Assembly (NCBI RefSeq): GCF_000744375.1
Contig: NZ_JQLU01000005.1
Coordinates: 2,069,496 to 2,093,495, forward strand
Direction: 5' to 3'
Source of the DNA: Carnobacterium gallinarum DSM 4847
Lineage (GTDB): Bacteria > Bacillota > Bacilli > Lactobacillales > Carnobacteriaceae
DNA: 24,000 nucleotides
Shown here: one piece after another, positions 2,061 to 23,933 of the stretch
Layout: each line of letters opens with the position of its first letter
How positions within the stretch are numbered: position 1 is the first letter of the stretch
Made by a program: the position numbers and the translations under genes
The notes under the pieces: model-generated
The model's input: only the letters and a program-made list of their open reading frames with translations
What the model was told of the DNA's origin: nothing
Databases searched by the model: none

Positions 2061-2903
2061 TTATTTTTTATCTGTCCAAACAGGTACAGAAGAGCCTTTT
2101 GACGTTTCTTCAATCACTTTGATGGTTTCGGGTGATTGGTAAGCTTTTACAACTTTTTTGTAGGTTTCATTGTCTTTGTCTTTATTGTTTGCCACAATAA
2201 TATTAATATATGGTTTTGACGTTTCATCAATAGGTTCTAGGAAGATCGCGTCTTTTGTTGGAACAAACCCTGCATCCACAGCCATACCACTATTGATTAA
2301 TGAAATTGTTGTATCTTTTAAAGCACGGGCAGTTTGAGCAGCATCTAATTCTTTAATTTCTAAGTTTAATTTATTTTCAGTAATATCTTTAACTGTAGGC
2401 GTTTGTTTGGCAGCTGGATTAACTTTAATCAAACCGGCTGTTTGTAAAAGTAATAACGCACGTCCGCCATTGGTTACATCATTAGGAATTGCAACAATAT
2501 CCTTATCTTTTAATTCTTTTACATCTTTAATTTTTTCAGAATAGATTCCAAGCGGCGCAATAACAGTTTCGCCAATCGAAACTAGATCGGTTCCGCTATC
2601 TTTGTTATAGGCATCTAGAAAAATTTGATGTTGGAAAGAGTTTAAATCAATTTCTCCTGAACTTAAAGCAGAGTTTGGTTGATTATAATCAGTGAATTTT
2701 ACAATGTTTAACTCAATATTCTCTTTCTTCAAACGTTCTTTTACAGAATCCCAAACCTCCGTATTTTCACCAACAACTCCAAGTTTAACAACTGTGGGTT
2801 TCTTTGTATCGGCGGCCGTATTGCTACCACTACCACAAGCAGCTATAAATCCTACACTTAAAATTAAGACTAACGCTAAGATGATTTTTTTTACATTTTT
2901 CAT
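2061..2903 (-). CDS. metQ: Methionine ABC transporter substrate-binding lipoprotein (MetQ/NlpA family)
   Basis: 280 aa. Signal peptide with lipobox FIAAC-G, NlpA-family body. Last gene of a metN-metI-metQ operon. Confidence 0.85.
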   Translation of the reverse strand: MKNVKKIILALVLILSVGFIAACGSGSNTAADTKKPTVVKLGVVGENTEVWDSVKERLKKENIELNIVKFTDYNQPNSALSSGEIDLNSFQHQIFLDAYNKDSGTDLVSIGETVIAPLGIYSEKIKDVKELKDKDIVAIPNDVTNGGRALLLLQTAGLIKVNPAAKQTPTVKDITENKLNLEIKELDAAQTARALKDTTISLINSGMAVDAGFVPTKDAIFLEPIDETSKPYINIIVANNKDKDNETYKKVVKAYQSPETIKVIEETSKGSSVPVWTDKK

Positions 2904-2955
2904 TTTCTTATTCCCCTTTTAATTTAAGTTTGATAAAACACATATGAATGATCTA

Positions 2956-3642
2956 TTAATGACTAGTTTTACGAATTAAATAATTGCCGATTGCTTGACT
3001 GATAAAGACTAAGATTAAAATAATGATTGTTGCGACTAAGGTTACATCATCTTGAAAACGATTATACCCACGAGAAATAGCTAAATTTCCTAATCCCCCA
3101 GCACCAATTGCACCAGCCATCGCAGTTAAACCAATTAAATTAATGATGGTTAAAGAAGAAGCACGAATAATTCCATTTAATCCTTCTTTTAAATAAACGC
3201 GGAAAATAATTTCTAGCGGGCTAGAACCCATCGATTGTGCAGCCTCAATTACACCAGGATCAACTTCAACCAATGCATTTTGAATTTGTCTAGCAAAGAA
3301 AGGAATAGTTCCGATTGATAATGGAACGATAGCAGCTGTAGTCCCAATGGATGTTCCAACAATTAAACGTGTAAAGGGAACAATGACAGCTAGCATGATA
3401 ATAAAAGGAATCGAACGGAATAGGTTAATCACTTTATCTAAAATATTGTACAACGTACGATGTTCCAGAATGCCACCACGGTCAGTAGCAACTAATATGA
3501 CCCCTAACACAATACCTAAAACTCCAGCAATTAGAGCGGTCACTCCAACCATGTAGAGTGTTTGAATCGTACTTTCGATAAATTCTTCTTTCAAAGGTGG
3601 TACATTTTTAAAATAAGTGTTAATAAACTCCATAATTTTCAC
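2956..3642 (-). CDS. metI: Methionine ABC transporter permease
   Basis: 228 aa polytopic BPD-type permease (EAAQSMGSSPLEIIFRVYL EAA loop). Its start lies 3 nt from the metN stop. Confidence 0.85.
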   Translation of the reverse strand: MKIMEFINTYFKNVPPLKEEFIESTIQTLYMVGVTALIAGVLGIVLGVILVATDRGGILEHRTLYNILDKVINLFRSIPFIIMLAVIVPFTRLIVGTSIGTTAAIVPLSIGTIPFFARQIQNALVEVDPGVIEAAQSMGSSPLEIIFRVYLKEGLNGIIRASSLTIINLIGLTAMAGAIGAGGLGNLAISRGYNRFQDDVTLVATIIILILVFISQAIGNYLIRKTSH

Positions 3643-3645
3643 TCC

Positions 3646-4722
3646 TTAGCTAATTTGGCTCTTTTTTTGTGGGTAGGGAATTATTTTTTCTTCATGTGGA
3701 ATTAAATCTACTTTGACATCTTTAGCAGCAAGATAGGCTAACGCTTTTTCACGCTTAGCTGGTTCACCAGAAAGAATTACGATTAAATTCCCAATCGGTG
3801 TATTCTGCAAAATTTCAACATTTCCAAAAAGGATACTAGTAGAAATAGTAAATTGACTATATAAATGCGAAATCAGTGGTTCACAGGTACTTTCTCCAAC
3901 GTAAGAAATTTTTGCCAGAACATCATTAGGTTTTAAATCAAGTAAAGTAGGATGGTTTAAAATCGTTTCTACTCCTTGATCGACATGTGTTGCTGTGTTG
4001 ATAAAGTCTTTTGTAAGAGTTTTTTTAGGTTTAGTAAAGATCGAAACGAGACTACCTTCCTCAATAACTTTGCCGTTTTCCATGACTGCAACCTTATTAC
4101 AGATTTCTTTCACAACTTGCATTTCATGGGTGATAATAACGATTGTCAACGCTAATTTTTTATTTAATTCTTTTAGCAATTCAAGAATCGATAAAGTCGT
4201 TTTTGGATCCAAGGCACTAGTTGCTTCATCACAAAGGAGAACTTCTGGATCATTTGCTAATGACCGAGCGATGGCTACCCGTTGCTTTTGCCCCCCAGAT
4301 AATTGAGAAGGAAAGGCATTATGTTTATCAGATAAGCCAACTAAGTCCAATAAATCACTCACCTTTTTCTGGATTTCAGTTTTAGATAGGCTAGAATTTT
4401 TTAAAGGAAAGGCAACATTATCAGCAATTGTACGAGAATCCATCAGATTAAAGTGCTGAAAAATCATGCCAATTTTCTTACGAGCGGTACGAAGATCTTT
4501 TGGCTTAAGACTAGATAAGTTTTGCTTTACCACAGTCACAGTCCCTTTTGTGGGACGTTGTAATAAATTGATTGTACGGACGAGCGTACTTTTTCCAGCT
4601 CCGCTATAGCCAACAATACCAAATACATCGCCTTTTTCTACATGTAAATCGACTTGATCGACTGCTTTAACAAGTTGCCCCTTACTTTCAAAAGTTACTT
4701 CAATATCTTTTAGTGTAATCAT
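3646..4722 (-). CDS. metN: Methionine ABC transporter ATP-binding protein with C-terminal NIL domain
   Basis: 358 aa. Walker [10 protein letters not shown], signature LSGGQKQR, Walker [12 protein letters not shown], and a C-terminal regulatory extension typical of MetN. Confidence 0.9.
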
Positions 4723-4913: not shown

Positions 4914-5222
4914 AAAAAATAAAAAACTCTCATCCTTTTATCAAATGAATCATTCGATAAAAGGACGAGAGCTATAATTTGCTTCGTGTTACCACCTTTG
5001 TTTATAAAACTATTGCTAGTTTTACCTTAACCAGTTCTTGAAAAACTTACTTTTCGTTAAACTGTGGCGCTTTATCGGGCGCACCCGTAACAATCTAAAG
5101 TATTAAAAATTAATACAATTCAACTGTTTCACTCCAAGACCATCTTCAGTTCTCTCTCCATTACCCGCTTCCACCAACGAGGGCTCTCTATAAATGTGTT
5201 AAAAACGTACTCTTCTCTTCAA
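4914..5222 (-). promoter_or_regulatory. T-box leader (Met specifier, AUG) controlling metNIQ
   Basis: Read on the minus strand. Stem I has an AGAGAG bulge and a UUGGUGGAA distal loop. The specifier loop is GAAG-AUG-G (AUG is the complement of 5141-5143). T-box sequence AAAGGUGGUAACACGAAGC is the complement of 4981-4999. Terminator CTCTCGTCCTTTTATC/GATAAAAGGATGAGAG (4971-4956 / 4942-4927) is followed by a U run (4926-4914). A possible -10 TATGAT is the complement of 5233-5238. Confidence 0.85.
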
Positions 5223-5360
5223 TGTGAATTTAATCATATTCTCATTTATTTGTAACTTAACACTTACTATACAGGGGAACTTAAATTTTGTCAATAAAAA
5301 TTTAAAAATAAAATTACGAATCAAATAAACTCTTTTAGCTAGTAAAAACCTCTCTAAATA

Positions 5361-5411: not shown

Positions 5412-5416
5412 TAAAT

Positions 5417-5521
5417 CAGAGTAGGGAATGAAGCGTTAAGTGCTGAAGGGATGGGATGTTGCCTTTTGGACGAAAAGCTATCTTTTGATAGGTTGCGGTT
5501 TTATTCTTGCATTCGCTGCAT
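5417..5521 (+). promoter_or_regulatory. THF (tetrahydrofolate) riboswitch aptamer
   Basis: CAGAGUAGG..AUGAAGCGUUAAGUG...GGGAUGGGAUGUUGCC...GGACGAAAAGC...UUGCGG...CUUGCAUUCGCUGCAU matches the conserved blocks of the THF-I riboswitch as I recall them. It lies directly upstream of a folT-type gene, its classic context. Confidence 0.8.
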
Positions 5522-5562: not shown

Positions 5563-6081
5563 ATGAACAAGAAAAAGTTAGATGCACGAGCTATTGCTAT
5601 TATTGGACTTTTAATGGCCTTAGAGATTATTTTAACGCGAGTTTTCTCGTTTGAAGTACCATTCTTTAGAATTGGTATAGGCTTTTTACCAGGAGTTATG
5701 ATTGCTATGATGTATGGTCCGTGGATTGCAGGGATTACAGCATTAGCAACAGATATTATCGGTATGACCTTATTGCCTAAAGCGATGTTTTTCCCAGGAT
5801 TTACATTGTCAGCTGTTTTAGGAGCAGTAATTTACGGCTTGGTTTTATACAAAAAGCCTAAGTCATTAGGACGGATTATTGTTGCAGTATTACTTGTTTC
5901 AGTAATAGTTAACCTTGGTTTAAACAGTCTATGGTTATCAATGATGTACGATAAAGCGTTTATTGCAATTTTTCCTGGTCGTGTCGTATCTAATTTAATA
6001 GGTACACCATTACGTGTAGCACTGATTTATCTTGTAGTTAAAAGTCGCGTGTTGGAACGATATTTGCAGCCAGTATTATAA
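5563..6081 (+). CDS. folT: Folate-family ECF transporter S component
   Basis: 172 aa, 5-6 TM small integral membrane protein (LDARAIAIIGLLMALEIILTR...). Preceded by the THF riboswitch; RBS AGAGGAG. Confidence 0.75.
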   Translation: MNKKKLDARAIAIIGLLMALEIILTRVFSFEVPFFRIGIGFLPGVMIAMMYGPWIAGITALATDIIGMTLLPKAMFFPGFTLSAVLGAVIYGLVLYKKPKSLGRIIVAVLLVSVIVNLGLNSLWLSMMYDKAFIAIFPGRVVSNLIGTPLRVALIYLVVKSRVLERYLQPVL

Positions 6082-15510: not shown

Positions 15511-15588
15511 ACTTAATTTCTGTAGCAATCAAGAGTATGTTCTAAAACAATCAGCATACTCTTGACGGGAATCAAAGGAGGTAAGCTA

Positions 15589-17070
15589 TTGTTTGATGAC
15601 AGTGAAATAATTGAAATTAAAATTTTGCAAATTTTGGACACAGAAGAAAAATGGTGGCAAAGTCTTGAAATTGCCAAACTACTTAATCAGTCAAAATCAA
15701 CGACTCAAAAATATTTAAAGTTATTAAAGGAAAAAATTTCAACCTTTGATAAAGAGTTAGTAGATATAGAAATAAGTAGTAGCCGAGGAATCTTTTTTAC
15801 ACGAGCGCCATCATTTAATTTACAGTTTCTATATACTGAAATACTCAAAGAGCTCCTATTATATTCGGTTGTTGAAAGTTTTATTTATGATGGAGCATTA
15901 TCAATCACCCAATTTTCAATGGTTCATTATGTCAGTGTTACATCAATAAGAAGAAAATATACAATCATTCAAGATTATTTAGAAAAATTAGAACTAACAA
16001 TAAAAAAAGATCAACTTATTGGGGAAGAAAAGCAAATTAGATGGTTCTTAACTCATTTCTTTTGGGAAGTCTACCAAAGTTCAGAGTGGCCCTTTTCCAC
16101 TATTTCAAAAAATGAGCTAACTACAATTGTCAGAGATATTGAAGACAAGTTCAGTTTGCAATTAATTCCTGAAATGAGAGAACAATTACTTTATTGGTTA
16201 GCAGTGAATATCATTCGTACGAATAAAGGGTATAAGTTGCCAATTGATGAAGAAATTGATCTATATTTAAAAGATCATCCTGTTTTTTTTGAGTTTAGGG
16301 GAGTAATTAGAGCGAAATTTTATAATCCGATTCGGTCGGAAAAAGAATTTTTGGGGAATGTAGGTGAAGTGCAACATCTCTTTTTTCTATGCACGATTTT
16401 CCCAGTTTTAGAAGGGGAGGAAACTCTAAGCACAATTAACTATCAAATGCATAAAAATAAACAGACACAAATGTATGCTGCAACTCAAAGGTGGATCACT
16501 ATGTATGAAGAGTTATTTGATTCAATTGATGGTGATTTAAAGAAGAATCAAATCGAAAAAAAATTACTACGAATCCATAGTTATTCTTATTTATATAAAA
16601 TGGGCGATGATCTTTTTCATACTCACGATTATATCGATGATCTTTTTGTGAAATATCCGAATTATTCTAAAAAAATGAATCAATTATATCAACAAATACA
16701 ACCTTCAAATGAACTGGTTTTAAAAAATCAACAGTATCTAATGAAAGCATATATGTTACTTTGTTATGAAGAATTTGAGATGATAAACTATGAAAAAAAT
16801 ATTCTGATTTGTCTAAGTATTGGTGATGGAAGTACGTATGAAGGGATTATGAAAAATGAACTTAAAACCAAATTTCAAGATAACTATAATTTAAAATTTA
16901 TTTCTCAAAAAGAAAGTGCGGATATTTGGATTACGAATTTACCAATAACCAATCCTGATGATTCAAAGTATCAAGTGAGTGTAAATAACTATTTTACTAA
17001 AAGAGATTATAAGTATATTGAAAATTTCTTTATTGAAATTATTGGGAAAGCGTCTATAGCTGATAACTAG
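15589..17070 (+). CDS. Mga/AtxA-like (PRD-containing virulence regulator type) transcriptional activator
   Basis: The N-terminal EIKILQILDTEEKWWQSLEIAKLLNQSKSTTQKYLKLLKEKI is an Mga-type HTH pattern. It has a long helical middle and a C-terminal ILICLSIGDGSTYEG... segment resembling the EIIB-like end of this family. TTG 15589 lies 7 nt after AGGAGG (15576-15581); the track start is 15562. Confidence 0.55.
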   Translation: MFDDSEIIEIKILQILDTEEKWWQSLEIAKLLNQSKSTTQKYLKLLKEKISTFDKELVDIEISSSRGIFFTRAPSFNLQFLYTEILKELLLYSVVESFIYDGALSITQFSMVHYVSVTSIRRKYTIIQDYLEKLELTIKKDQLIGEEKQIRWFLTHFFWEVYQSSEWPFSTISKNELTTIVRDIEDKFSLQLIPEMREQLLYWLAVNIIRTNKGYKLPIDEEIDLYLKDHPVFFEFRGVIRAKFYNPIRSEKEFLGNVGEVQHLFFLCTIFPVLEGEETLSTINYQMHKNKQTQMYAATQRWITMYEELFDSIDGDLKKNQIEKKLLRIHSYSYLYKMGDDLFHTHDYIDDLFVKYPNYSKKMNQLYQQIQPSNELVLKNQQYLMKAYMLLCYEEFEMINYEKNILICLSIGDGSTYEGIMKNELKTKFQDNYNLKFISQKESADIWITNLPITNPDDSKYQVSVNNYFTKRDYKYIENFFIEIIGKASIADN

Positions 17071-17102
17071 TTATAACAAAATTCAATAATAATAATTATT
17101 TT

Positions 17103-17141
17103 AAAAAAACAAGGACTGCTTCAGTCTCTTGTTTTTTTTTG
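17103..17141 (+). terminator. Rho-independent terminator after the regulator gene
   Basis: Stem AACAAGGACTG (17108-17118) / AGTCTCTTGTT (17123-17133, one bulge), followed by T9. Confidence 0.75.
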
Positions 17142-17257
17142 TTGATAAGTAACGATGCGGGTACGACATTGTTAAATAAAGTTGTTAGTCTTTAAACATA
17201 AGCCTGCCTTACTCAAATGAATCAATAAGATACAAAATAGTCTACTTCTAAAAAAAA

Positions 17258-17290
17258 TCAGAATTAAGGTCAAGAAAGACTTAATTCTGA
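17258..17290 (+). promoter_or_regulatory. Perfect inverted repeat upstream of the synthase operon promoter (candidate activator site)
   Basis: TCAGAATTAAG (17258-17268) / CTTAATTCTGA (17280-17290), 11-nt spacer. TATACT -10 box at 15 nt-plus downstream (17315-17320), with only a poor -35 (TGTTTC). Confidence 0.4.
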
Positions 17291-17350
17291 ATGTTTCTAG
17301 AAGGTAGAACGTTTTATACTGAATGCATAGTAAAAGAAGGAGCGTGTTTA

Positions 17351-18661
17351 ATGTTTACTTTGCCAGATTTATTATTTAAAGGAGTGTCAATGGTTATTTT
17401 AATTACATCAATCATGGTGTTTTTTCATTTAGGTTTTTATACCTTATTAGCGCTAATAGGATTAAAAAAGCCGAAAAGAACATATGAGATAAAGTCAGAT
17501 AAAAATAAGTTTTTATTTATTGTCCCGGCCCATAATGAGGAAAAAGTGATTCAAAATTGTTTAGAGAGTATTTCACGCTTAGACTATGATGCTCAATTAG
17601 TGAATGCAGTTATTTTAGCAGATCACTGTGAGGATAGGACAGCTGAAATTGCACGTTCTATAAATAACTATACGGTATATGAGAATACCTATGCTGAGGG
17701 AGATGTAAGAGGAAAGCCTCACGTTATTGGAAAATATTTGAAGGAACATAGAGACATATGGTTAAAGTATGATTTTATCGTGTTTTTAGATGCAGATAAC
17801 TTAGTTTCATCAAATTATTTAAAAGAAATAAATTCCCAGTCTATTGCTCAACCTGAATATATGGTGATTCAAGGTTATTTAGATAGTAAAAATATCGGTG
17901 AATCAATGCTGTCTAGAGGATATGCGGCGGCGTACTTTATTACAAATCGAGCAATTCAATATTCAAAGCATTTACTTGGTTGGAATGCCTCTATCGGTGG
18001 TACGGGGTTTGCGCTTAGAACAGATTATATTGAGCAATATGGCTGGAATCCTAAAAGTTATACGGAAGATTTTGAGATTCAAGTTGAATTATCAATTGAA
18101 GGGAAAAAAAGCACGTGGAATCATTTTGCAAAAGTTTATGATGAAAAACCAAATACTTTAGTTGTAAGCCATGTTCAGCGGACTAGATGGTCACAAGGAC
18201 ATTGGCATATTGCATTTACAAAAACTGGCAAGCAACTACTCTCATTAGTGAAACCACAAGGAATTGTCAGTTGGAGCAATCGCTTAGAAACGCTTATTTA
18301 TTCTTATTCGATGTTCAGATCAGTCTGGCTCTTGTTTTTATTTATGCTAGTAGCTATTGATGTTAGACTTATTTCTCAACTTCCCTATTTCTTTTCATTT
18401 TTCTGGTTTTGGTTAATATTTGAAACAATCAATTATATTGTGATTCCATTTACTTACATCATTCAAGAAGGGAAAGAATACATGGGAAATTTTAATACAT
18501 CCAAAAAGATTTCAGAATTTTTTCTACTGTGGGTTGGTTATTTTTATTCAACAGCAGTGTATTACTTTGCTCAAATAAAAGGGTTCTTTACTTGGTTTTT
18601 ACCGCAAAATCATTGGCAAAAGACCGAGCATACAAGTCAAGTTAGTTCGGATGATTTATAA
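17351..18661 (+). CDS. Membrane-embedded processive family-2 glycosyltransferase (polysaccharide synthase type)
   Basis: 436 aa from ATG 17351 (RBS AAGGAG 17335-17340). N-terminal TM, then IVPAHNEE, DAD (17789-17797), TED (18062-18070) and QRTRW (18176-18190). At least 3 C-terminal TM helices follow. Confidence 0.8.
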   Translation: MFTLPDLLFKGVSMVILITSIMVFFHLGFYTLLALIGLKKPKRTYEIKSDKNKFLFIVPAHNEEKVIQNCLESISRLDYDAQLVNAVILADHCEDRTAEIARSINNYTVYENTYAEGDVRGKPHVIGKYLKEHRDIWLKYDFIVFLDADNLVSSNYLKEINSQSIAQPEYMVIQGYLDSKNIGESMLSRGYAAAYFITNRAIQYSKHLLGWNASIGGTGFALRTDYIEQYGWNPKSYTEDFEIQVELSIEGKKSTWNHFAKVYDEKPNTLVVSHVQRTRWSQGHWHIAFTKTGKQLLSLVKPQGIVSWSNRLETLIYSYSMFRSVWLLFLFMLVAIDVRLISQLPYFFSFFWFWLIFETINYIVIPFTYIIQEGKEYMGNFNTSKKISEFFLLWVGYFYSTAVYYFAQIKGFFTWFLPQNHWQKTEHTSQVSSDDL

Positions 18662-18694
18662 AATCCTAGAAAAGTAAGGATAGAAAGGACACTT

Positions 18695-19810
18695 ATGAAA
18701 AAATTCACAGTTATGGTTGTGATTGGAGATGATCAGGAGGCCTTAAAAATGGCTCCAATTATTGACAAGCTAAAGAGAGAGTTTGAAAAATTTAAAGTAA
18801 GCATTGTAAGTACAGCAAGTAATAAACCAGCAGTCAAAAAAATCCTAGGGCTGTATCATGTAAAAACGAATATCGATTTGAATGTTAGAAAAAGAAATCA
18901 ACAATTAAATGAATATATAGTGGCTGTGACTGCAGGAATTACAAAGGCCATTCATCATGAAAAACCTGATTTAGTCTTAGTTCATGGAGATTCTACAACT
19001 AGTCTAGGAGCTTCTTTATCGGCTTTTTATCAAAAAATTAGTGTTGGACAGATAGATGCTGGTCTACGCTATGGCAATAAATATAGTTCGTTTCCAGCTG
19101 AAATGAATCGACGTTTGACAAGTGTAATTGCTGATTTTCATTTTGTTTCTACAAATTCAGCAAAAGCCAATTTAATAAAAGAAGGCATTCAAGAAAATCA
19201 TATTTTTATGACAGGAAATACGGTTATCGAAACGTTGCCCAAAACAGTAAAAGAAAAATTTATCTACAATGAAATTTCAATTCATAGCGACAATAGTCTA
19301 ATTTTACTGTCTCTTGATCAACTAGAGGAAATCAATCCAAAATTAGAGGAACTGTATGCAGCTATTAAACAAGTAGTCGCAAAAAATAGCAAAGTGGAAA
19401 TTATTTATCCACTGCATTTAAATCCAGTGCTGCGAAATCATGCGATTGATACTCTATCAACTATAGAAAGAATTCATCTAGTAGAGCCTTTAGATGTTGG
19501 CAAGTATCACAATTTAATCAATCAAGCCCAATTAGTGCTAACAGATACTAGCAGTATGTATGAAGTTGCTACCAGTTTAAAAACGCCTTTATTGATTATG
19601 GCGGCTGACATAGATCATCCTGAAATAATTCATACAGGCGTTGGCAAATTAATTGAGATGAATTCGGTGACAATTACAGAGGAAGTTATGAAATTAATGA
19701 CAGATACTTTTTATTATGATTCTATGCTTTTAAATGAGGAAGTCTTTACGAATGGACTTGAAAGTGCGAGTGAAAAAATTGTGGAAGTAATAAAAAAACA
19801 AATTAGATAA
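18695..19810 (+). CDS. UDP-N-acetylglucosamine 2-epimerase (WecB/MnaA)-like protein with degenerate catalytic motifs
   Basis: 371 aa, colinear with MnaA/WecB (HGDSTT, AGLR, NR, HLNP and LTD blocks kept). GTRPE, GHVE, HRREN and DSGG-QEE blocks are replaced (see findings). Confidence 0.65.
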   Translation: MKKFTVMVVIGDDQEALKMAPIIDKLKREFEKFKVSIVSTASNKPAVKKILGLYHVKTNIDLNVRKRNQQLNEYIVAVTAGITKAIHHEKPDLVLVHGDSTTSLGASLSAFYQKISVGQIDAGLRYGNKYSSFPAEMNRRLTSVIADFHFVSTNSAKANLIKEGIQENHIFMTGNTVIETLPKTVKEKFIYNEISIHSDNSLILLSLDQLEEINPKLEELYAAIKQVVAKNSKVEIIYPLHLNPVLRNHAIDTLSTIERIHLVEPLDVGKYHNLINQAQLVLTDTSSMYEVATSLKTPLLIMAADIDHPEIIHTGVGKLIEMNSVTITEEVMKLMTDTFYYDSMLLNEEVFTNGLESASEKIVEVIKKQIR

Positions 19811-19830
19811 GGAATGGGGAATAAAAAATT

Positions 19831-19986
19831 ATGCAATATTCAAATGAAAAAATTGGAATCGAACTAAAAAGCAATACACAGAATCAGATTAAGCAGAAAA
19901 AAGGTCAATTAGCGGTAGTTAATGCTCTATTTTTACTGGCTTTTGTTTCAGTAGTCAGTACATTTATCTATTTGGCCTTTTTTTAA
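19831..19986 (+). CDS. Small tail-anchored membrane protein, 51 aa (not in the ORF track)
   Basis: ATG 19831 ... TAA 19984-19986. Sequence MQYSNEKIGIELKSNTQNQIKQKKGQLAVVNALFLLAFVSVVSTFIYLAFF has a polar basic N-half and one C-terminal TM. It starts 20 nt after the epimerase-like stop. Confidence 0.4.
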   Translation: MQYSNEKIGIELKSNTQNQIKQKKGQLAVVNALFLLAFVSVVSTFIYLAFF

Positions 19987-20050
19987 GAGAGAAAGGCAGC
20001 AATTCTGAAAAAGTAGTGGTTGTTTATTTAGCTGGCAAGGAGGAAGTAGG

Positions 20051-20728
20051 ATGAGAATAAAGAACCATAATTTTGCCAATGTGTATAGATTCTTATTTTT
20101 GCTAGTTTGTGGCTATGGACTGTATCTAAATTCTGGACTAGTAAATGGAAAATTAGAGCTAGGTTATCTATGGTTTTATACAATTTTAAGTAATCTTGTT
20201 TGTTTTATCTATTATTTTTATTTAGAAATACAGTCCATTCGAGGGTTTCCTTATCAAGAGACTTCAAGAATGAAGGGTGCTATAACAATGTGTATTACTG
20301 TGACACTGGTTGTCTATCATTTTTTACTAGTACCAAATGCTTTTGAAATGAACCCAGAATATACAATTTTTAGTTTGGGAAATCTGATTGTTCATTATAT
20401 TGTTCCTATATTGGTACTTTTGGATTGGTTACTCTTTGATAAAAAAGGCGTAGGTAAAGTGAACGATCCGATTCTATGGTTACTGTTGCCATTTAGTTAT
20501 TTTTTAGCTGTATTTATGCGAGCTTTGATTTTAAAAACACCTTTAGTTGGTAAAAGTTTATATCCTTATTATTTTATGGATAGTCAACAAATTGGAACAG
20601 CTGGGGTCGCAATCACAATCATTTTTTTAGTACTGTTATTTTTATGTATTGGGTATTGTATTTTTGGAGTGGATTTAGTTCTTTCAAAAAGAGAAATTCT
20701 AAAAAAGGGTAAGTTTTTTATTGATTGA
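20051..20728 (+). CDS. Six-TM membrane protein, probably Pr6Pr / FAR-17a/AIG1-like family
   Basis: 225 aa. FYTILSNLVCF and LIVHYIVPILVLLDWLLF resemble the conserved SN and H..P...DW blocks I associate with this family. RBS AAGGAGGA. Confidence 0.5.
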   Translation: MRIKNHNFANVYRFLFLLVCGYGLYLNSGLVNGKLELGYLWFYTILSNLVCFIYYFYLEIQSIRGFPYQETSRMKGAITMCITVTLVVYHFLLVPNAFEMNPEYTIFSLGNLIVHYIVPILVLLDWLLFDKKGVGKVNDPILWLLLPFSYFLAVFMRALILKTPLVGKSLYPYYFMDSQQIGTAGVAITIIFLVLLFLCIGYCIFGVDLVLSKREILKKGKFFID

Positions 20729-20766
20729 TTGGATAGTAGAGTGACTTTGATATGGAGGATTTTAAC

Positions 20767-20931
20767 ATGACTAAATTTGAATTTTATGAACGTCTATTAA
20801 AAGAACTTGAGAATGATTTCTGTTTTTTAAAGGAAAAAATGTATACAGATGAAGAGTATAGTAAAGTAAAAAATTTATTACTGGAAGTTTTTAGGATTGA
20901 GCTAACTAGTACTTCCCTAACAGAAGATTGA
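20767..20931 (+). CDS. Small cytoplasmic hypothetical protein, 54 aa (not in the ORF track)
   Basis: ATG 20767 is preceded by GGAGG (20753-20757). Sequence MTKFEFYERLLKELENDFCFLKEKMYTDEEYSKVKNLLLEVFRIELTSTSLTED, stop TGA 20929-20931. Predicted helical, no TM. Confidence 0.45.
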   Translation: MTKFEFYERLLKELENDFCFLKEKMYTDEEYSKVKNLLLEVFRIELTSTSLTED

Positions 20932-21071
20932 TGCCACTAGTTACTAGTTTCCATTTTGAATTTTACTAATTCAGCTTTTAAGTCAACTTGACCTGAAATT
21001 TGGTCATAAATAAGGTGGATTTGACAGTATACTAGATTTTGACTAACAAAAAAATTAGAAGGAGCGAAAAA

Positions 21072-23825
21072 ATGAAAAAACAGAAACAGTCATATACAAA
21101 GATTATGAGTTCACTATTAGTAGCAAGTATTTTAGCAGCACCGGTATTGGAGTTAACCAATCCGTTAAAAACGGTATTTGCAGAAACAACGGAGCTGGTA
21201 GAAGAAAAAACAGAAACAGATGAAACAGAAGCAGAAAGTCAGGAAGAATCCGAGGAATCTACTCCAATTGAAGCAGAACAAGAGGAGGAGAATCCTGCCG
21301 AAATATCAGTTGAACCAGAGGCTGTAGATGTAGAAACATCCTCAAATCCAGTTAAAGCAGCCACTGTTGGAACAAAAGCGGATACAGATCTGATTACAGC
21401 GGCTGATTTAGGGAATGAACAATGGTTGATTGATAACGTGCAAAGCCAAACAAGAAAAAAAGTTGGCGTTGATCTAACTTTTGGTGATTTAAAAACAATC
21501 ACTGATATTAAACTTGAAAGAAGAGATGTAGTTGGAAGTATTCCTACAGAAATAGAGAATTTAAGTAACTTAGTGAACTTGAATTTGAACTCGAACGAAG
21601 TGAGTGGAAGTATCCCTGAAGGCATAGGGAATTTAAGCAAATTAACAACTTTAAATTTGGAGAATAATAAATTAAGTGGGAATATTCCTGAGATTCTAGG
21701 GAATTTAAGTAATTTAACAATCTTGAATTTGTATAATAATCAACTTGATGGAAACATTCCTGATATTCTGGCGAATTTAAGTAACTTAACCAACTTAGAT
21801 TTGAGGGGCAATCAACTGAGTGGAGACATTCCTAAAAGTCTCGGAAATTTAAGTAACTTAACGAACTTGAATTTGGGTGGTAATGAATTAAGTGGAAGCA
21901 TTCCTGAGGAACTGGGGAACTTAAGTAACTTAACGATCTTGAATTTATATTTTAACCAATTGAGTGGAAATATCCCTGAAAGTCTAGCCAATTTAAGTAA
22001 CTTAAAGACCTTGAGTTTTAATACAAACCAATTGAGTGGAAATGTCCCTGAAAGTCTAGCCAATTTAAGTAACTTAACAAGTTTAGATTTGAGGACAAAT
22101 AAACTGAGTGGAAGCATTCCTGAGAGTTTAGGGAATTTAACTAACTTAGTAGGCTTATATTTGAGTCACAATCAACTGAGTGGAAGTATTCCCGATAGTC
22201 TAGGTAATTTAAGTAATTTAAGTGGATTTAGTGTATATGGTAACCAATTGAGTGGAACCATTCCTGAAAGTCTAGGAAATTTAAGTAACTTAAAGAGTTT
22301 AGATATAGGTCGTAATCAATTAAGTGGAACTATTCCATCGAGTCTAGGAAATCTAAATAACTTAGATAGTTTTTTTTTCAGTTATAATAAATTGATTGGC
22401 ATCATTCCAGAAAATCTTAAATCAATGGAGAAGATTTCTAATAGCGCTGCTTATGATAATCAAGTAACAAGCAATTCAAATGGTCCATTTGATTTTGATA
22501 ATGGGAAAAATCTTCATTCACTTGGTACATTTATTAATGCTGAAGGTTCCAAATTACAATTGAACTCAAATTCAATTCTCTATTTAAATCCCAAAATGGC
22601 TGATTTAAAACCATTCGATAGTGAAAGCGATAGTTATTTCAATATTGGATTATCAAATGGGGAAGAGCTATTTGAAGGCCATATCTATACAATTAAAGAC
22701 AAAGCAACAGGCGAAGTCAAGTATAGTGGTGAGGCAGATGATTCTGTTGTTTTACCAAATCCAGGTAAGGCCACAACGTATCAAATTATTCTAGATGAAG
22801 CAGATAAAAATCCAAATAATATAACAGAAACTAGAGTAACAGTACAGGGGCCAGTAAAAGTAGAATACAAATCAGAAGCAGGGACTGAGATAGCTCCTAT
22901 TCAACTATTAGAAGGCGAAATTGGGACGCCCTATACAACCAGTGCGCTAGATATCGAAGGGTGGATTTTAAAAGAAACTCCGGCAAATGCGAACGGAACG
23001 TATACAGCTACCGAACAAACGGTGACTTATATTTATCAAGCAATACCAACTCCTTATAATACATTCACGAATGGCTACTGGAGAGATTATGGGTTTATTC
23101 TTGAAGGACGTGCTGGAATTGACACAGAGAAATTTAGCGCCGAAGATTCAGTCACGAAAAAAGTAGAAATGTTAGATAATACTGGAACTATTGTGAAAAC
23201 ATGGGATGCACAAAATACAAACTGGTATGACGCGACTACCTACGATGGCTATCAAGTGATTTTAACAACTGCTGATATGGCGACGTTAGCTGCTGGAAAT
23301 TACACATTCCAAGTAGAAGTGACTTTAAAGAATGGTGACAAATATGTTGAAGCTATTCAAGAAGGAAGTTCAGCCTTGGGATTTATTGGTGAAGAAAGTC
23401 AAACGATTGCTGGTTTAGAAAATGGTATAGCTAACTCAAATGAGGTTGCTTTTAGTACAAATGGTCGCAATGTGATGCAAATGAATATAGCTTCCTCGAC
23501 TGCAGCATTTAATAAAATTACCCAATATACAAGTGAGGCAGGAACGACCATCATTGATGGCTGGGTTGCAGAAACCAGCTTTAACTTTGCCGATACCCAT
23601 ACAAAAGAACTTGTGATTGAGAATGCTGAAGGAACAGAAGTCTATCGTGAGATAGCTCCTACATGGGATATTACAGAAACATTTGGTATTACAGTCAACG
23701 ATGAATGGAAACGTGCAGGATTCCAAGCCGATATTCCACAATTACATGATGTAAGTGAAAATAAAGCGTATATCGTAGTAAAAAATGAAGATGGAACAGA
23801 TATTAGTAAAACACAAATTAAATAA
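21072..23825 (+). CDS. Secreted leucine-rich-repeat protein (plant-specific-type LRRs plus MucBP domain), no recognisable anchor
   Basis: 917 aa from ATG 21072 (RBS AAGGAG). Signal peptide MKKQKQSYTKIMSSLLVASILAAPVL...VFA-ETT, then an acidic E/T-rich linker. Twelve 24-aa LxxLxxLxLxxNxLSGxIPxxLGN repeats follow, then a MucBP-like segment (VKVEYKSEAGTEIAP...TVTYIYQ). The last approx. 260 aa are uncharacterised. No LPXTG, C-terminal TM, LysM, GW or WxL domain was recognised. Confidence 0.8.
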   Translation: MKKQKQSYTKIMSSLLVASILAAPVLELTNPLKTVFAETTELVEEKTETDETEAESQEESEESTPIEAEQEEENPAEISVEPEAVDVETSSNPVKAATVGTKADTDLITAADLGNEQWLIDNVQSQTRKKVGVDLTFGDLKTITDIKLERRDVVGSIPTEIENLSNLVNLNLNSNEVSGSIPEGIGNLSKLTTLNLENNKLSGNIPEILGNLSNLTILNLYNNQLDGNIPDILANLSNLTNLDLRGNQLSGDIPKSLGNLSNLTNLNLGGNELSGSIPEELGNLSNLTILNLYFNQLSGNIPESLANLSNLKTLSFNTNQLSGNVPESLANLSNLTSLDLRTNKLSGSIPESLGNLTNLVGLYLSHNQLSGSIPDSLGNLSNLSGFSVYGNQLSGTIPESLGNLSNLKSLDIGRNQLSGTIPSSLGNLNNLDSFFFSYNKLIGIIPENLKSMEKISNSAAYDNQVTSNSNGPFDFDNGKNLHSLGTFINAEGSKLQLNSNSILYLNPKMADLKPFDSESDSYFNIGLSNGEELFEGHIYTIKDKATGEVKYSGEADDSVVLPNPGKATTYQIILDEADKNPNNITETRVTVQGPVKVEYKSEAGTEIAPIQLLEGEIGTPYTTSALDIEGWILKETPANANGTYTATEQTVTYIYQAIPTPYNTFTNGYWRDYGFILEGRAGIDTEKFSAEDSVTKKVEMLDNTGTIVKTWDAQNTNWYDATTYDGYQVILTTADMATLAAGNYTFQVEVTLKNGDKYVEAIQEGSSALGFIGEESQTIAGLENGIANSNEVAFSTNGRNVMQMNIASSTAAFNKITQYTSEAGTTIIDGWVAETSFNFADTHTKELVIENAEGTEVYREIAPTWDITETFGITVNDEWKRAGFQADIPQLHDVSENKAYIVVKNEDGTDISKTQIK
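21552..22415 (+). repeat. 12 tandem 72-bp coding repeats (LRR units)
   Basis: The AATTTAAGTAAC core recurs at 21558, 21630, 21702 ... with an exact 72-nt period. Long stretches are identical between units (e.g. GGGAATTTAAGTAACTTAAC, CAATTGAGTGGAA). Confidence 0.9.
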
Positions 23826-23873
23826 GCAAAATAGAGTGTGAGTAGGATAGAACTCTATCTTCCAAAGAAAAAA

Positions 23874-23911
23874 GGTGGGAAACTAGAAAAATCTAGTTTC
23901 TCACCTTTTTT
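23874..23911. terminator. Bidirectional terminator between the LRR gene and a convergent gene
   Basis: Stem GGTGGGAAACTAG (23874-23886) / CTAGTTTCTCACC (23893-23905), with an A run before it and T6 after it. Confidence 0.85.
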
Positions 23912-23933
23912 CACTACTTAAATCTATCAAAAA

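Follow-up and report, generated by a model that had tools for sequence, protein, structure and literature searches.

The subject of this article is a stretch of 24,000 nucleotides (nt) of Carnobacterium gallinarum DNA, from here on "the window," and in particular a unit of six co-directional open reading frames (ORFs) that lies between two terminators and includes the genes of a membrane glycosyltransferase of family 2 (GT2) and of a large secreted protein with leucine-rich repeats (LRRs). That protein ends in a C-terminal domain (CTD), and it is the association of this domain with the GT2 in other genomes that carries our argument. The window was scanned for ORFs, terminators, and protein families, and the features of the locus are as follows (aa, amino acids; TM, transmembrane; RBS, ribosome-binding site; dG, folding free energy).

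15562-17070, forward strand: Mga/AtxA-type regulator of the AcpB/EbpR/MafR family (NCBIfam and Pfam), 502 aa, predicted TTG start.
17103-17141, forward strand: rho-independent terminator after the regulator gene, a hairpin with a U-run, dG -15.6 kcal/mol, z -4.4.
17241-17308, forward strand: long imperfect inverted repeat (hairpin) in the 5' region of the GT2 gene, with 24-nt arms that are 88% complementary.
17351-18661, forward strand: membrane GT2, a glycosyltransferase resembling processive synthases, 436 aa, with Pfam matches Glyco_tranf_2_3 and Glyco_trans_2_3 and a good RBS.
18695-19810, forward strand: protein of the WecB/MnaA fold with a degenerate active site, 371 aa (TIGR00236, 294 bits, cut-off 210).
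19831-19986, forward strand: micro-protein, 51 aa, with a polar N-terminus and a C-terminal TM helix (residues 33-51).
20051-20728, forward strand: Pr6Pr family membrane protein, 225 aa, accessory (NF038065, 82 bits, cut-off 30; at least 4 TM segments).
20767-20931, forward strand: acidic 54-aa ORF, a putative gene, with an RBS-like GGAGG 6 nt upstream.
21072-23825, forward strand: secreted LRR/MucBP protein, 917 aa, with an RBS-supported ATG, identical to P0122.
23046-23822, forward strand: the CTD, about 260 aa, a tandem beta-sandwich and the sole region shared with large neighbors of GT2 homologues.
23867-23912, both strands: strong bidirectional terminator closing the unit, with a 21-bp stem, dG -30.7 kcal/mol, z -8.9.

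A first-pass annotation of this DNA had already outlined the unit, and its description holds. All six ORFs and the regulator upstream of them were recovered as it described them, the gaps between the six genes are exactly 33, 20, 64, 38, and 140 nt, both terminators were borne out by folding, and the families it assigned agree with Pfam and NCBIfam searches. The RBS-supported starts, in turn, agree with database proteins of 436 aa (GT2) and 917 aa (LRR protein). We read the terminator at 23867-23912 as bidirectional because of the A-runs and U-runs on its flanks. The annotation also reported no terminator within the unit, and this stands as well: the sole terminator-like match inside, at 23009-23024, is a weak 5-bp stem, and the total from the terminator scan is at chance level (4 found vs. 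3.8 expected). The promoter scan was uninformative (27 found vs. 38.5 expected).

With 100% identity, the GT2 matches a C. gallinarum protein at NCBI. It carries the DxD, TED, and Q(Q/R)xRW signatures as D147-A-D149, T238-E-D240, and Q276-R-T-R-W280, and DxD, TED, and QRxRW are invariant across 29 GT2 homologues. By hydropathy scan it has TM segments at residues 7-25, 318-336, and 347-365 plus a hydrophobic C-terminus, and the hydrophobic segments border the catalytic domain on both sides. Its scores against named synthases fall far below the equivalog cut-offs: 57.7 bits for PgaC_IcaA (TIGR03937, cut-off 422), 28.3 for CelA (699), 18.4 for NodC (550), and 84.7 for EpsU (700). A PDB search returned no close solved relative; likeness to known structures is weak and, over the catalytic core, is found just with BcsA (the TED-QxxRW region). 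These sub-cut-off scores, together with the lack of a close solved relative, lead us to place the protein in a distinct family or subclade of membrane GT2s that resemble processive synthases.

At the other end of the unit, the LRR protein is built, in order, of a hydrophobic N-terminal signal peptide, an acidic linker, 11-12 LRRs of 24 residues (11 of which are perfect by the expression L..L..L.L..N.LSG.IP), a MucBP domain, and the CTD. Its Pfam matches are limited to LRR families and MucBP. It has no LPXTG motif by regular expression and no WxL, LysM, GW, SLH, or CWB match in Pfam. Nor does it score as an internalin: model NF033187 gives 40.4 bits against a cut-off of 1700, over the MucBP part only. 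The repeats themselves (window positions 21561-22424) are near-perfect copies of LxxLxxLxLxxNxLSGxIPxxLGN, and their best NCBIfam likeness is to XopAE and XopAC. This 24-residue class is typical of plant receptor LRRs and Xanthomonas effectors, and such a likeness is unusual for a lactic acid bacterium.

The CTD matches nothing in Pfam or NCBIfam above any cut-off. An exhaustive HMMER search among 1.84 billion proteins found it in 75 representative clusters; a word-index search found nothing with a single sequence and one protein with a 13-sequence profile. In all full-length matches the domain sits at the C-terminus or within about 20 residues of it. The residues that never vary in it are mainly Tyr, Trp, Gly, Gln, Glu, and Lys, with the patterns GYW..YG...EG, NTNWY, and Y.GYQ. 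AlphaFold2, given a 25-sequence alignment, returned an all-beta model with two subdomains (pLDDT 91.8, vs. 38.8 from the single sequence). Foldseek matched that model to generic tandem Ig/FnIII structures, with RbmA on top (E 4e-6); with a TM-score of about 0.2 and an identity of about 10%, the predicted likeness to RbmA is one of fold, not homology.

What precedes the CTD varies widely. It sits behind at least seven unrelated passengers, the LRRs being just one of them; elsewhere they include M60 peptidase, M26 peptidase, LRR_5, RCC1, DUF285, and pectate-lyase-like domains. A genome may hold several CTD copies, some of them unlinked to a GT2 (as in locus L090; L numbers denote the loci we compared). 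We regard the CTD as a new domain family and, probably, a surface-retention tag. There are also proteins of about 640-720 aa that carry the first CTD subdomain only (L013, 14861-15928 and 19102-21249; L020, 358-999; L096-L098). In L013/L014 and L098 they are 8-9 kb from the GT2 gene, and in L013 and L020 they sit among genes for WxL and WxL-interacting proteins, a setting suggestive of cross-talk with the WxL surface complex of enterococci.

The central evidence comes from other genomes. The first-pass annotation had proposed a gene-neighborhood comparison. For this, the neighborhoods of GT2 homologues were fetched from genomes and assemblies and searched with the window proteins and a hidden Markov model of the CTD, and the loci were divided into close ones, with a GT2 at least 40% identical to that of the window (29 loci), and distant ones at 33-38% (61 loci). 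The flanking DNA that was fetched encodes a CTD protein in 24 of the 29 close loci vs. none of the 61 distant ones. The CTD-bearing loci span Carnobacterium, Brochothrix, Enterococcus, Vagococcus, Lactococcus, Bacillus cereus, Clostridium, and Sarcina. Two of the five close loci with no CTD are cut short: L007 stops 2.7 kb past the GT2, and in L009 a 1983-aa neighbor runs off the contig. Searching in the reverse direction, from the CTD, we found a GT2 adjoining in the metagenome loci L092, L094, and L095, and also in L091 and L104; in the full-length metagenome loci the GT2 and wecB genes follow directly downstream of the CTD gene. Among 72,556 plasmids, the five that encode a GT2 of at least 50% identity are the same five that have a CTD match, and the two genes adjoin in each. 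Three are Enterococcus raffinosus megaplasmids, one is from Enterococcus faecalis, and one is a mobilizable Lactococcus lactis plasmid.

Thus, the linkage is conserved across genera, plasmids, and metagenomes. The idea that unrelated genes happen to lie together in one genome is effectively refuted: seven genera or more share the arrangement, plasmids and metagenomes have it too, and the distant GT2s lack it. The earlier suggestion that a synthase is coupled to a secreted LRR protein needs revision in one respect: the linkage is real, but its partner is the CTD of about 260 aa and not the LRRs.

The pair also appears to travel together. Pairwise identities of GT2s and CTDs co-vary (r 0.85, Mantel p 2e-4), which argues that they are inherited as a module. 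In B. cereus and Enterococcus, GT2 identity reaches 72-75%, a similarity that points to horizontal transfer. In C. gallinarum itself a second module occurs on another contig (L001, 10001-15851). Its GT2 is 61% identical to that of the window and adjoins a 1442-aa M60 peptidase that ends in a CTD only 27% identical to the one described here, so the two modules may be orthogonal synthase-docking pairs in one genome. In Brochothrix thermosphacta (L003, 13087-14291 and 14410-17781), the GT2 is from the window's subclade and the CTD from the other, a mismatch that we read as module shuffling.

Upstream of the unit lies the regulator. It matches NCBIfam model NF053736 with 175.4 bits (cut-off 130), residues 12-489 aligning to model positions 2-479, and carries the Mga helix-turn-helix domain PF05043 (E 5e-13). 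This full-length match above cut-off and the N-terminal Mga domain place it in the AcpB/EbpR/MafR family. Mga-type regulators adjoin the GT2 in 19 of the fetched loci (near-duplicates counted) in addition to the window; such homologues are present on the flanks of the GT2 gene in loci of Brochothrix, Enterococcus, Vagococcus, and B. cereus as well as on SRA contigs without an assignment. Mga/AtxA-type regulators classically govern regulons of functionally diverse surface factors.

It is here that a first serious alternative must be considered, namely, that synthase and CTD proteins are co-regulated and physically independent. The locus would then be an Mga-controlled mobile colonization island holding an exopolysaccharide (EPS) synthase and separate adhesins or proteases, and the CTD would serve in oligomerization, host binding, or peptidoglycan binding. 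The regulator family favors this, AtxA control of the hasACB genes of B. cereus biovar anthracis being a case in point (PMC4382292), as do the generic Ig/FnIII tandem fold of the CTD and the CTD genes that do not lie beside a GT2. We nevertheless think it unlikely. The CTD is essentially confined to this one GT2 subclade (the 24/29 vs. 0/61 loci and 5/5 plasmids given above), the link holds in loci of Lactococcus and Clostridium without an Mga regulator, and the GT2 is tracked by the CTD and not by the passengers.

Another recurrent partner is the micro-protein. In L100, where the GT2 is 69% identical to that of the window, a 50-aa homologue of it (E 9e-8) comes directly after the GT2 gene, in the order Mga regulator, GT2, 50-aa homologue, Pr6Pr, and intact epimerase. 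A micro-ORF of 27-60 aa abuts the GT2 gene in 18 of 26 close-clade loci vs. 2 of 61 distant ones, and most of these have a polar or basic N-terminus and a single C-terminal TM helix. Two of the plasmid loci (L101, 10318-10401; L102, 10309-10392) have micro-ORFs of 27-32 aa with one TM helix between GT2 and wecB, and in L104 (2331-2429) a micro-ORF of the same kind lies just upstream of the GT2 gene. The plasmid micro-ORFs are unannotated in their RefSeq records. The micro-protein belongs to the conserved core, and by analogy with IcaD and PgaD it may be a co-subunit of the synthase. The core consists of the GT2 subclade, a single-helix micro-protein of 27-60 aa, and a secreted protein ending in the CTD.

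Not every gene of the unit has this standing. The first-pass annotation had treated the six ORFs as one unit, and the GT2 and the 51-aa protein are indeed core, but Pr6Pr occurs in three loci only (the window, L100, and the L. lactis plasmid NZ_CP117405, where it lies beside a CTD protein, GT2, and wecB) and the 54-aa ORF is without support. Pr6Pr membership itself is clear from the NCBIfam domain model NF038065, and we found no literature on Pr6Pr function. The longest frame of the 54-aa ORF opens at 20752, the RBS favoring 20767; it has no TM segment, no family match, and no homologue in any locus examined.

Other partner genes bear on the chemistry. The commonest is a UDP-GlcNAc 2-epimerase, in 20 loci, followed by an LtaS-like sulfatase-family protein in 10 loci (though not in the window); a few loci have GDPD, an Acyl_transf_3/SGNH O-acetyltransferase, or a PrsA-like foldase. 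Examples of such accessory genes around the module are found in L104 (486-13076), L090 (1332-9319), and L005 (18071-19948). The PrsA-like rotamase is encoded just upstream of the CTD gene and, in L104, between the CTD gene and the GT2 gene. These genes may mean that the polymer is decorated with glycerophosphate or O-acetyl groups and that the cargo has a dedicated foldase, and they fit a decorated extracytoplasmic glycan and a large secreted cargo.

The recurrent LtaS-like and GDPD partners could also be read as pointing to glycerol-phosphate chemistry, and the paralogous C. gallinarum locus is near LCP and TagO-like genes. On this basis the GT2, instead of producing a free EPS, might decorate or extend an existing teichoic-acid or glycolipid-anchored polymer that the CTD then recognizes. 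We consider this quite improbable, since TED, QRxRW, and the multi-TM C-terminus resemble processive synthases, and the window, like many other loci, has no LtaS-like gene. CsbB/GtrB-type lipid-carrier glycosyltransferases are unlike GT2s with these three features.

Strict GT2-CTD adjacency and co-variation, and the foldase gene that lies between the two in some loci, also bring to mind a covalent connection, in which the CTD would be no lectin but a substrate that the GT2 and micro-protein glycosylate, or a primer on which they build a glycan. Here too the balance is negative, and we rate the idea as improbable. The catalytic domain of the GT2 is predicted to be cytoplasmic, between TM segments, and QxxRW is typical of polymer synthases, whereas the CTD is a Sec-exported domain that is folded outside the cell; in addition, the extra CTD genes that are unlinked to a GT2 better fit a shared ligand than a dedicated substrate.

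The epimerase deserves separate treatment, as the copy in the window is peculiar. It passes as a member of the WecB/MnaA family, with 39% full-length identity to the reference epimerases of Listeria monocytogenes and Bacillus anthracis (3OT5, 3BEO). When aligned with these, however, it has lost motif after motif: GTRPEAIK reads GDDQEALK, HVEAG reads QIDAG, PEE reads PAE, HRRE reads DQLE, DSGGxQEEA reads DTSSMYEVA, TERPE reads IDHPE, and NPYGDG reads EVFTNG. In Escherichia coli WecB numbering, with positions obtained by counting along the sequence, the replacements include R10>D, E117>D, H213>D, SGG>SSM, and QEE>YEV, with D95, K15, and E131 still present. According to the mutagenesis literature, R10, E117, H213, the DSGGxQEE loop, and TERPE of the E. 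coli enzyme are catalytic or UDP-binding. The term "pseudo-epimerase" used in the first-pass annotation was therefore apt for the window copy, in which catalytic and UDP-binding motifs are gone. The protein is predicted to be catalytically dead, and UDP-ManNAc at this locus would need a housekeeping enzyme. The ORF is long and intact despite its divergence, and this suggests that it may retain some non-catalytic role.

Most other loci differ. In 17 of 19 GT2-adjacent epimerases, all motifs present are kept or show single-residue differences. Both Brochothrix copies lack the N-terminal part; in B. thermosphacta L003 the epimerase is split, or else truncated at its N-terminus, and was missed by gene calling. 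The epimerase of L011 (Enterococcus termitis) is degenerate, and so, separately, is that of L099. The latter, at 3-665, sits upstream of a GT2 that shares 73% identity with that of the window and is the third degenerate WecB-like gene, with HRRE>YRLN and DSGGVQEEA>DSKSVHVEA; its independent degeneration implies that epimerase motifs have been lost more than once in the module. We considered a conserved pseudo-enzyme clade and rejected it, as the degenerate copies grouped as long branches only, with mutual identities of about 22-29% and different replacements. From their sequences, we favor decay or divergence of each copy on its own over a new function that has been conserved. The degenerate epimerase is thus a local peculiarity of the window, and at the level of the family the synthase would normally be supplied with UDP-ManNAc.

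Taken together, we propose that the locus is one copy of a conserved mobile module, in which a synthase makes a surface glycan of ManNAc/GlcNAc type and the CTD docks proteins on that glycan, and we give this a probability of about 0.5. The gene content, motifs, domain architecture, and conserved co-localization are established. The scheme would run as follows. The Mga/AtxA-type regulator would activate the unit. The GT2 and its single-helix micro-protein would then polymerize a UDP-N-acetylhexosamine (UDP-HexNAc) to a beta-linked glycan and extrude it through the TM region of the GT2, much as in IcaA/IcaD or PgaC/PgaD. Since the intact UDP-GlcNAc 2-epimerase is the commonest partner gene, the donor would most likely be UDP-ManNAc and/or UDP-GlcNAc; in some loci LtaS-like, GDPD, or O-acetyltransferase partners might further decorate the polymer. 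The neighboring protein would be exported by Sec, and its CTD would bind the glycan non-covalently, so that the N-terminal passenger stays at the cell surface or within the matrix. That passenger would be LRRs and MucBP here and, elsewhere, mucinase-type M60 or M26 peptidases, BspA-like LRR_5 repeats, or RCC1.

Several points weigh against this proposal. The polymer, its sugar, and the binding of the CTD to it are all deduced from sequence. Fold matches of the CTD are generic, with TM-scores of 0.2-0.3, and neither support nor exclude a lectin function. Close GT2 loci L019, L022, and L026 have no CTD protein within 10 kb, and some CTD genes (L090, L093) are away from any GT2. Co-variation cannot separate functional co-evolution from plain co-inheritance. 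Finally, the degenerate epimerase weakens the case for ManNAc at this particular locus.

A bolder version of the proposal, which we put forward tentatively and at somewhat less than even odds, is that this is an unrecognized display system: a private HexNAc (ManNAc-type) glycan, made by a dedicated synthase with its micro-protein, as landing pad, adhesins and proteases of mucin- or IgA-degrading type targeted to it by the CTD, and a mobile plug-and-play cassette, possibly with orthogonal pairs, that has spread between families in Enterococcus, Lactococcus, Carnobacterium, Brochothrix, B. cereus, and Clostridium.

How does the module relate to what is known? The databases and papers that we searched held nothing relevant on C. 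gallinarum surface proteins or on this combination of genes, and the first-pass remark that it is not a described system is in keeping with that search. Where family membership was tested, the locus fell outside the systems compared. The has operon (class I hyaluronan synthase HasA and the precursor enzymes HasB and HasC; hasACB of B. cereus biovar anthracis is an example under AtxA control) resembles it in having one membrane GT2 with QxxRW, an adjacent gene for a nucleotide-sugar precursor, control by the AtxA/Mga family, and no Wzx/Wzy/ABC machinery. It differs in that the locus GT2 has no hyaluronan synthase match in PDB and NCBIfam searches, in that a UDP-GlcNAc 2-epimerase takes the place of a dehydrogenase or pyrophosphorylase as the precursor gene, and in having no described counterpart of the micro-protein or the CTD proteins. 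Similarly, the PNAG systems icaADBC and pgaABCD combine a GT2 of about 410-440 aa with a small membrane partner (IcaD, PgaD), and their product is a HexNAc polymer for surface and biofilm association. Unlike them, the locus has no deacetylase, IcaC, or porin; IcaD and PgaD are far larger than the micro-protein (27-60 aa, one TM helix); and, from the epimerase partner, ManNAc is suggested in place of GlcNAc alone.

Anchoring by a single non-covalent domain, shared by many passengers and specific for a wall glycan, is familiar from SLH domains and the pyruvylated secondary cell wall polysaccharide of B. anthracis, from CWB2 and PSII in Clostridium difficile, and from GW modules and lipoteichoic acid in Listeria. 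The B. anthracis polysaccharide contains ManNAc and needs UDP-GlcNAc 2-epimerases. The CTD has no sequence match to SLH, CWB2, GW, WxL, or LysM models, and, unlike in the SLH, CWB2, and GW cases, the ligand maker would be a single synthase encoded beside the anchored protein, the pair moving together on plasmids. In Vibrio cholerae, the matrix-protein genes (RbmA, RbmC, Bap1) are physically linked to EPS genes; RbmA is of tandem FnIII type and binds polysaccharide directly. Several genes take part in making the Vibrio polysaccharide (VPS), by a pathway that is not synthase-dependent. RbmA, the VPS-binding matrix protein (PMC5605196), stands alone, while large passengers carry the CTD as a module at their C-terminus.

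Among Firmicutes there is also a precedent for a cell-associated EPS built on ManNAc, namely, Listeria Pss (pssA-E), a polymer that depends on the glycosyltransferase PssC, with a beta-1,4-ManNAc backbone and Gal (PMC13492145). The module loci are set apart from it by gene content, as they have no receptor for cyclic di-GMP (c-di-GMP) and no genes like PssA, B, D, E, or Z. The GT2 homologue of Listeria fleischmannii (L026, 40% identity) has unrelated neighbors, and a c-di-GMP-controlled EPS of the Listeria Pss or Bacillus subtilis Yda type was discarded as an explanation because a scan of L026 and L080 turned up no receptor or accessory genes. In our view, then, the new parts are the micro-protein, a GT2 subclade of its own, and the family of the CTD, and the logic of a synthase-dependent surface glycan with a docking domain is known.

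Some features of the locus and the window remain to be listed. The hairpin at 17241-17308 is AU-rich (dG -23.1 kcal/mol, z -5.1), has a short U-stretch after it, and leaves 43 nt between its end and the start codon of the GT2 gene; it may serve as an operator or as an attenuator in the leader. Its conservation does not extend to the related loci L007, L099, and L100. We rejected an operator shared by the GT2 genes, as a comparison of their upstream regions showed just short conserved patches and the long hairpin is not common to them. A riboswitch or other leader upstream of the GT2 gene, such as a c-di-GMP riboswitch, was likewise dismissed, Rfam finding none at the locus.

Across the whole 24-kb window, the ORFs of at least 100 aa gave no Pfam match for Wzx, Wzy, a priming transferase, a regulator of chain length, or an ABC exporter of polysaccharides, and the unit is thus, as first noted, without Wzx/Wzy or ABC-type machinery. 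The sole ABC system in the window is a methionine-type importer (2061-4722, reverse strand: NlpA lipoprotein, permease, and an ATPase with a NIL domain), behind a T-box leader (4958-5231, reverse strand, 97 bits). A tetrahydrofolate riboswitch (5415-5520, forward strand, 73.9 bits) lies directly 5' of the S component of an ECF transporter (5563-6081, forward strand), presumably a folate-family transporter. Other genes of the window encode phosphotransferase system components, peptidases, and stress proteins.

For sortase-independent anchoring in Gram-positive bacteria, only a handful of domain-ligand pairs are, to our knowledge, described (SLH, CWB2, GW, LysM, WxL, and choline-binding). If our proposal is true, the module would add a new pair, one in which the enzyme that makes the ligand is encoded beside the cargo and the whole unit is mobile. 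The module is found in enterococci, lactococci, and lactic acid bacteria associated with food spoilage or fish, and its passengers include mucinase and IgA-protease types. It would also give a function to the widespread "GT2 family protein" and to unannotated micro-ORFs of 27-60 aa, and lactic acid bacteria might gain in the CTD a modular tag for display.

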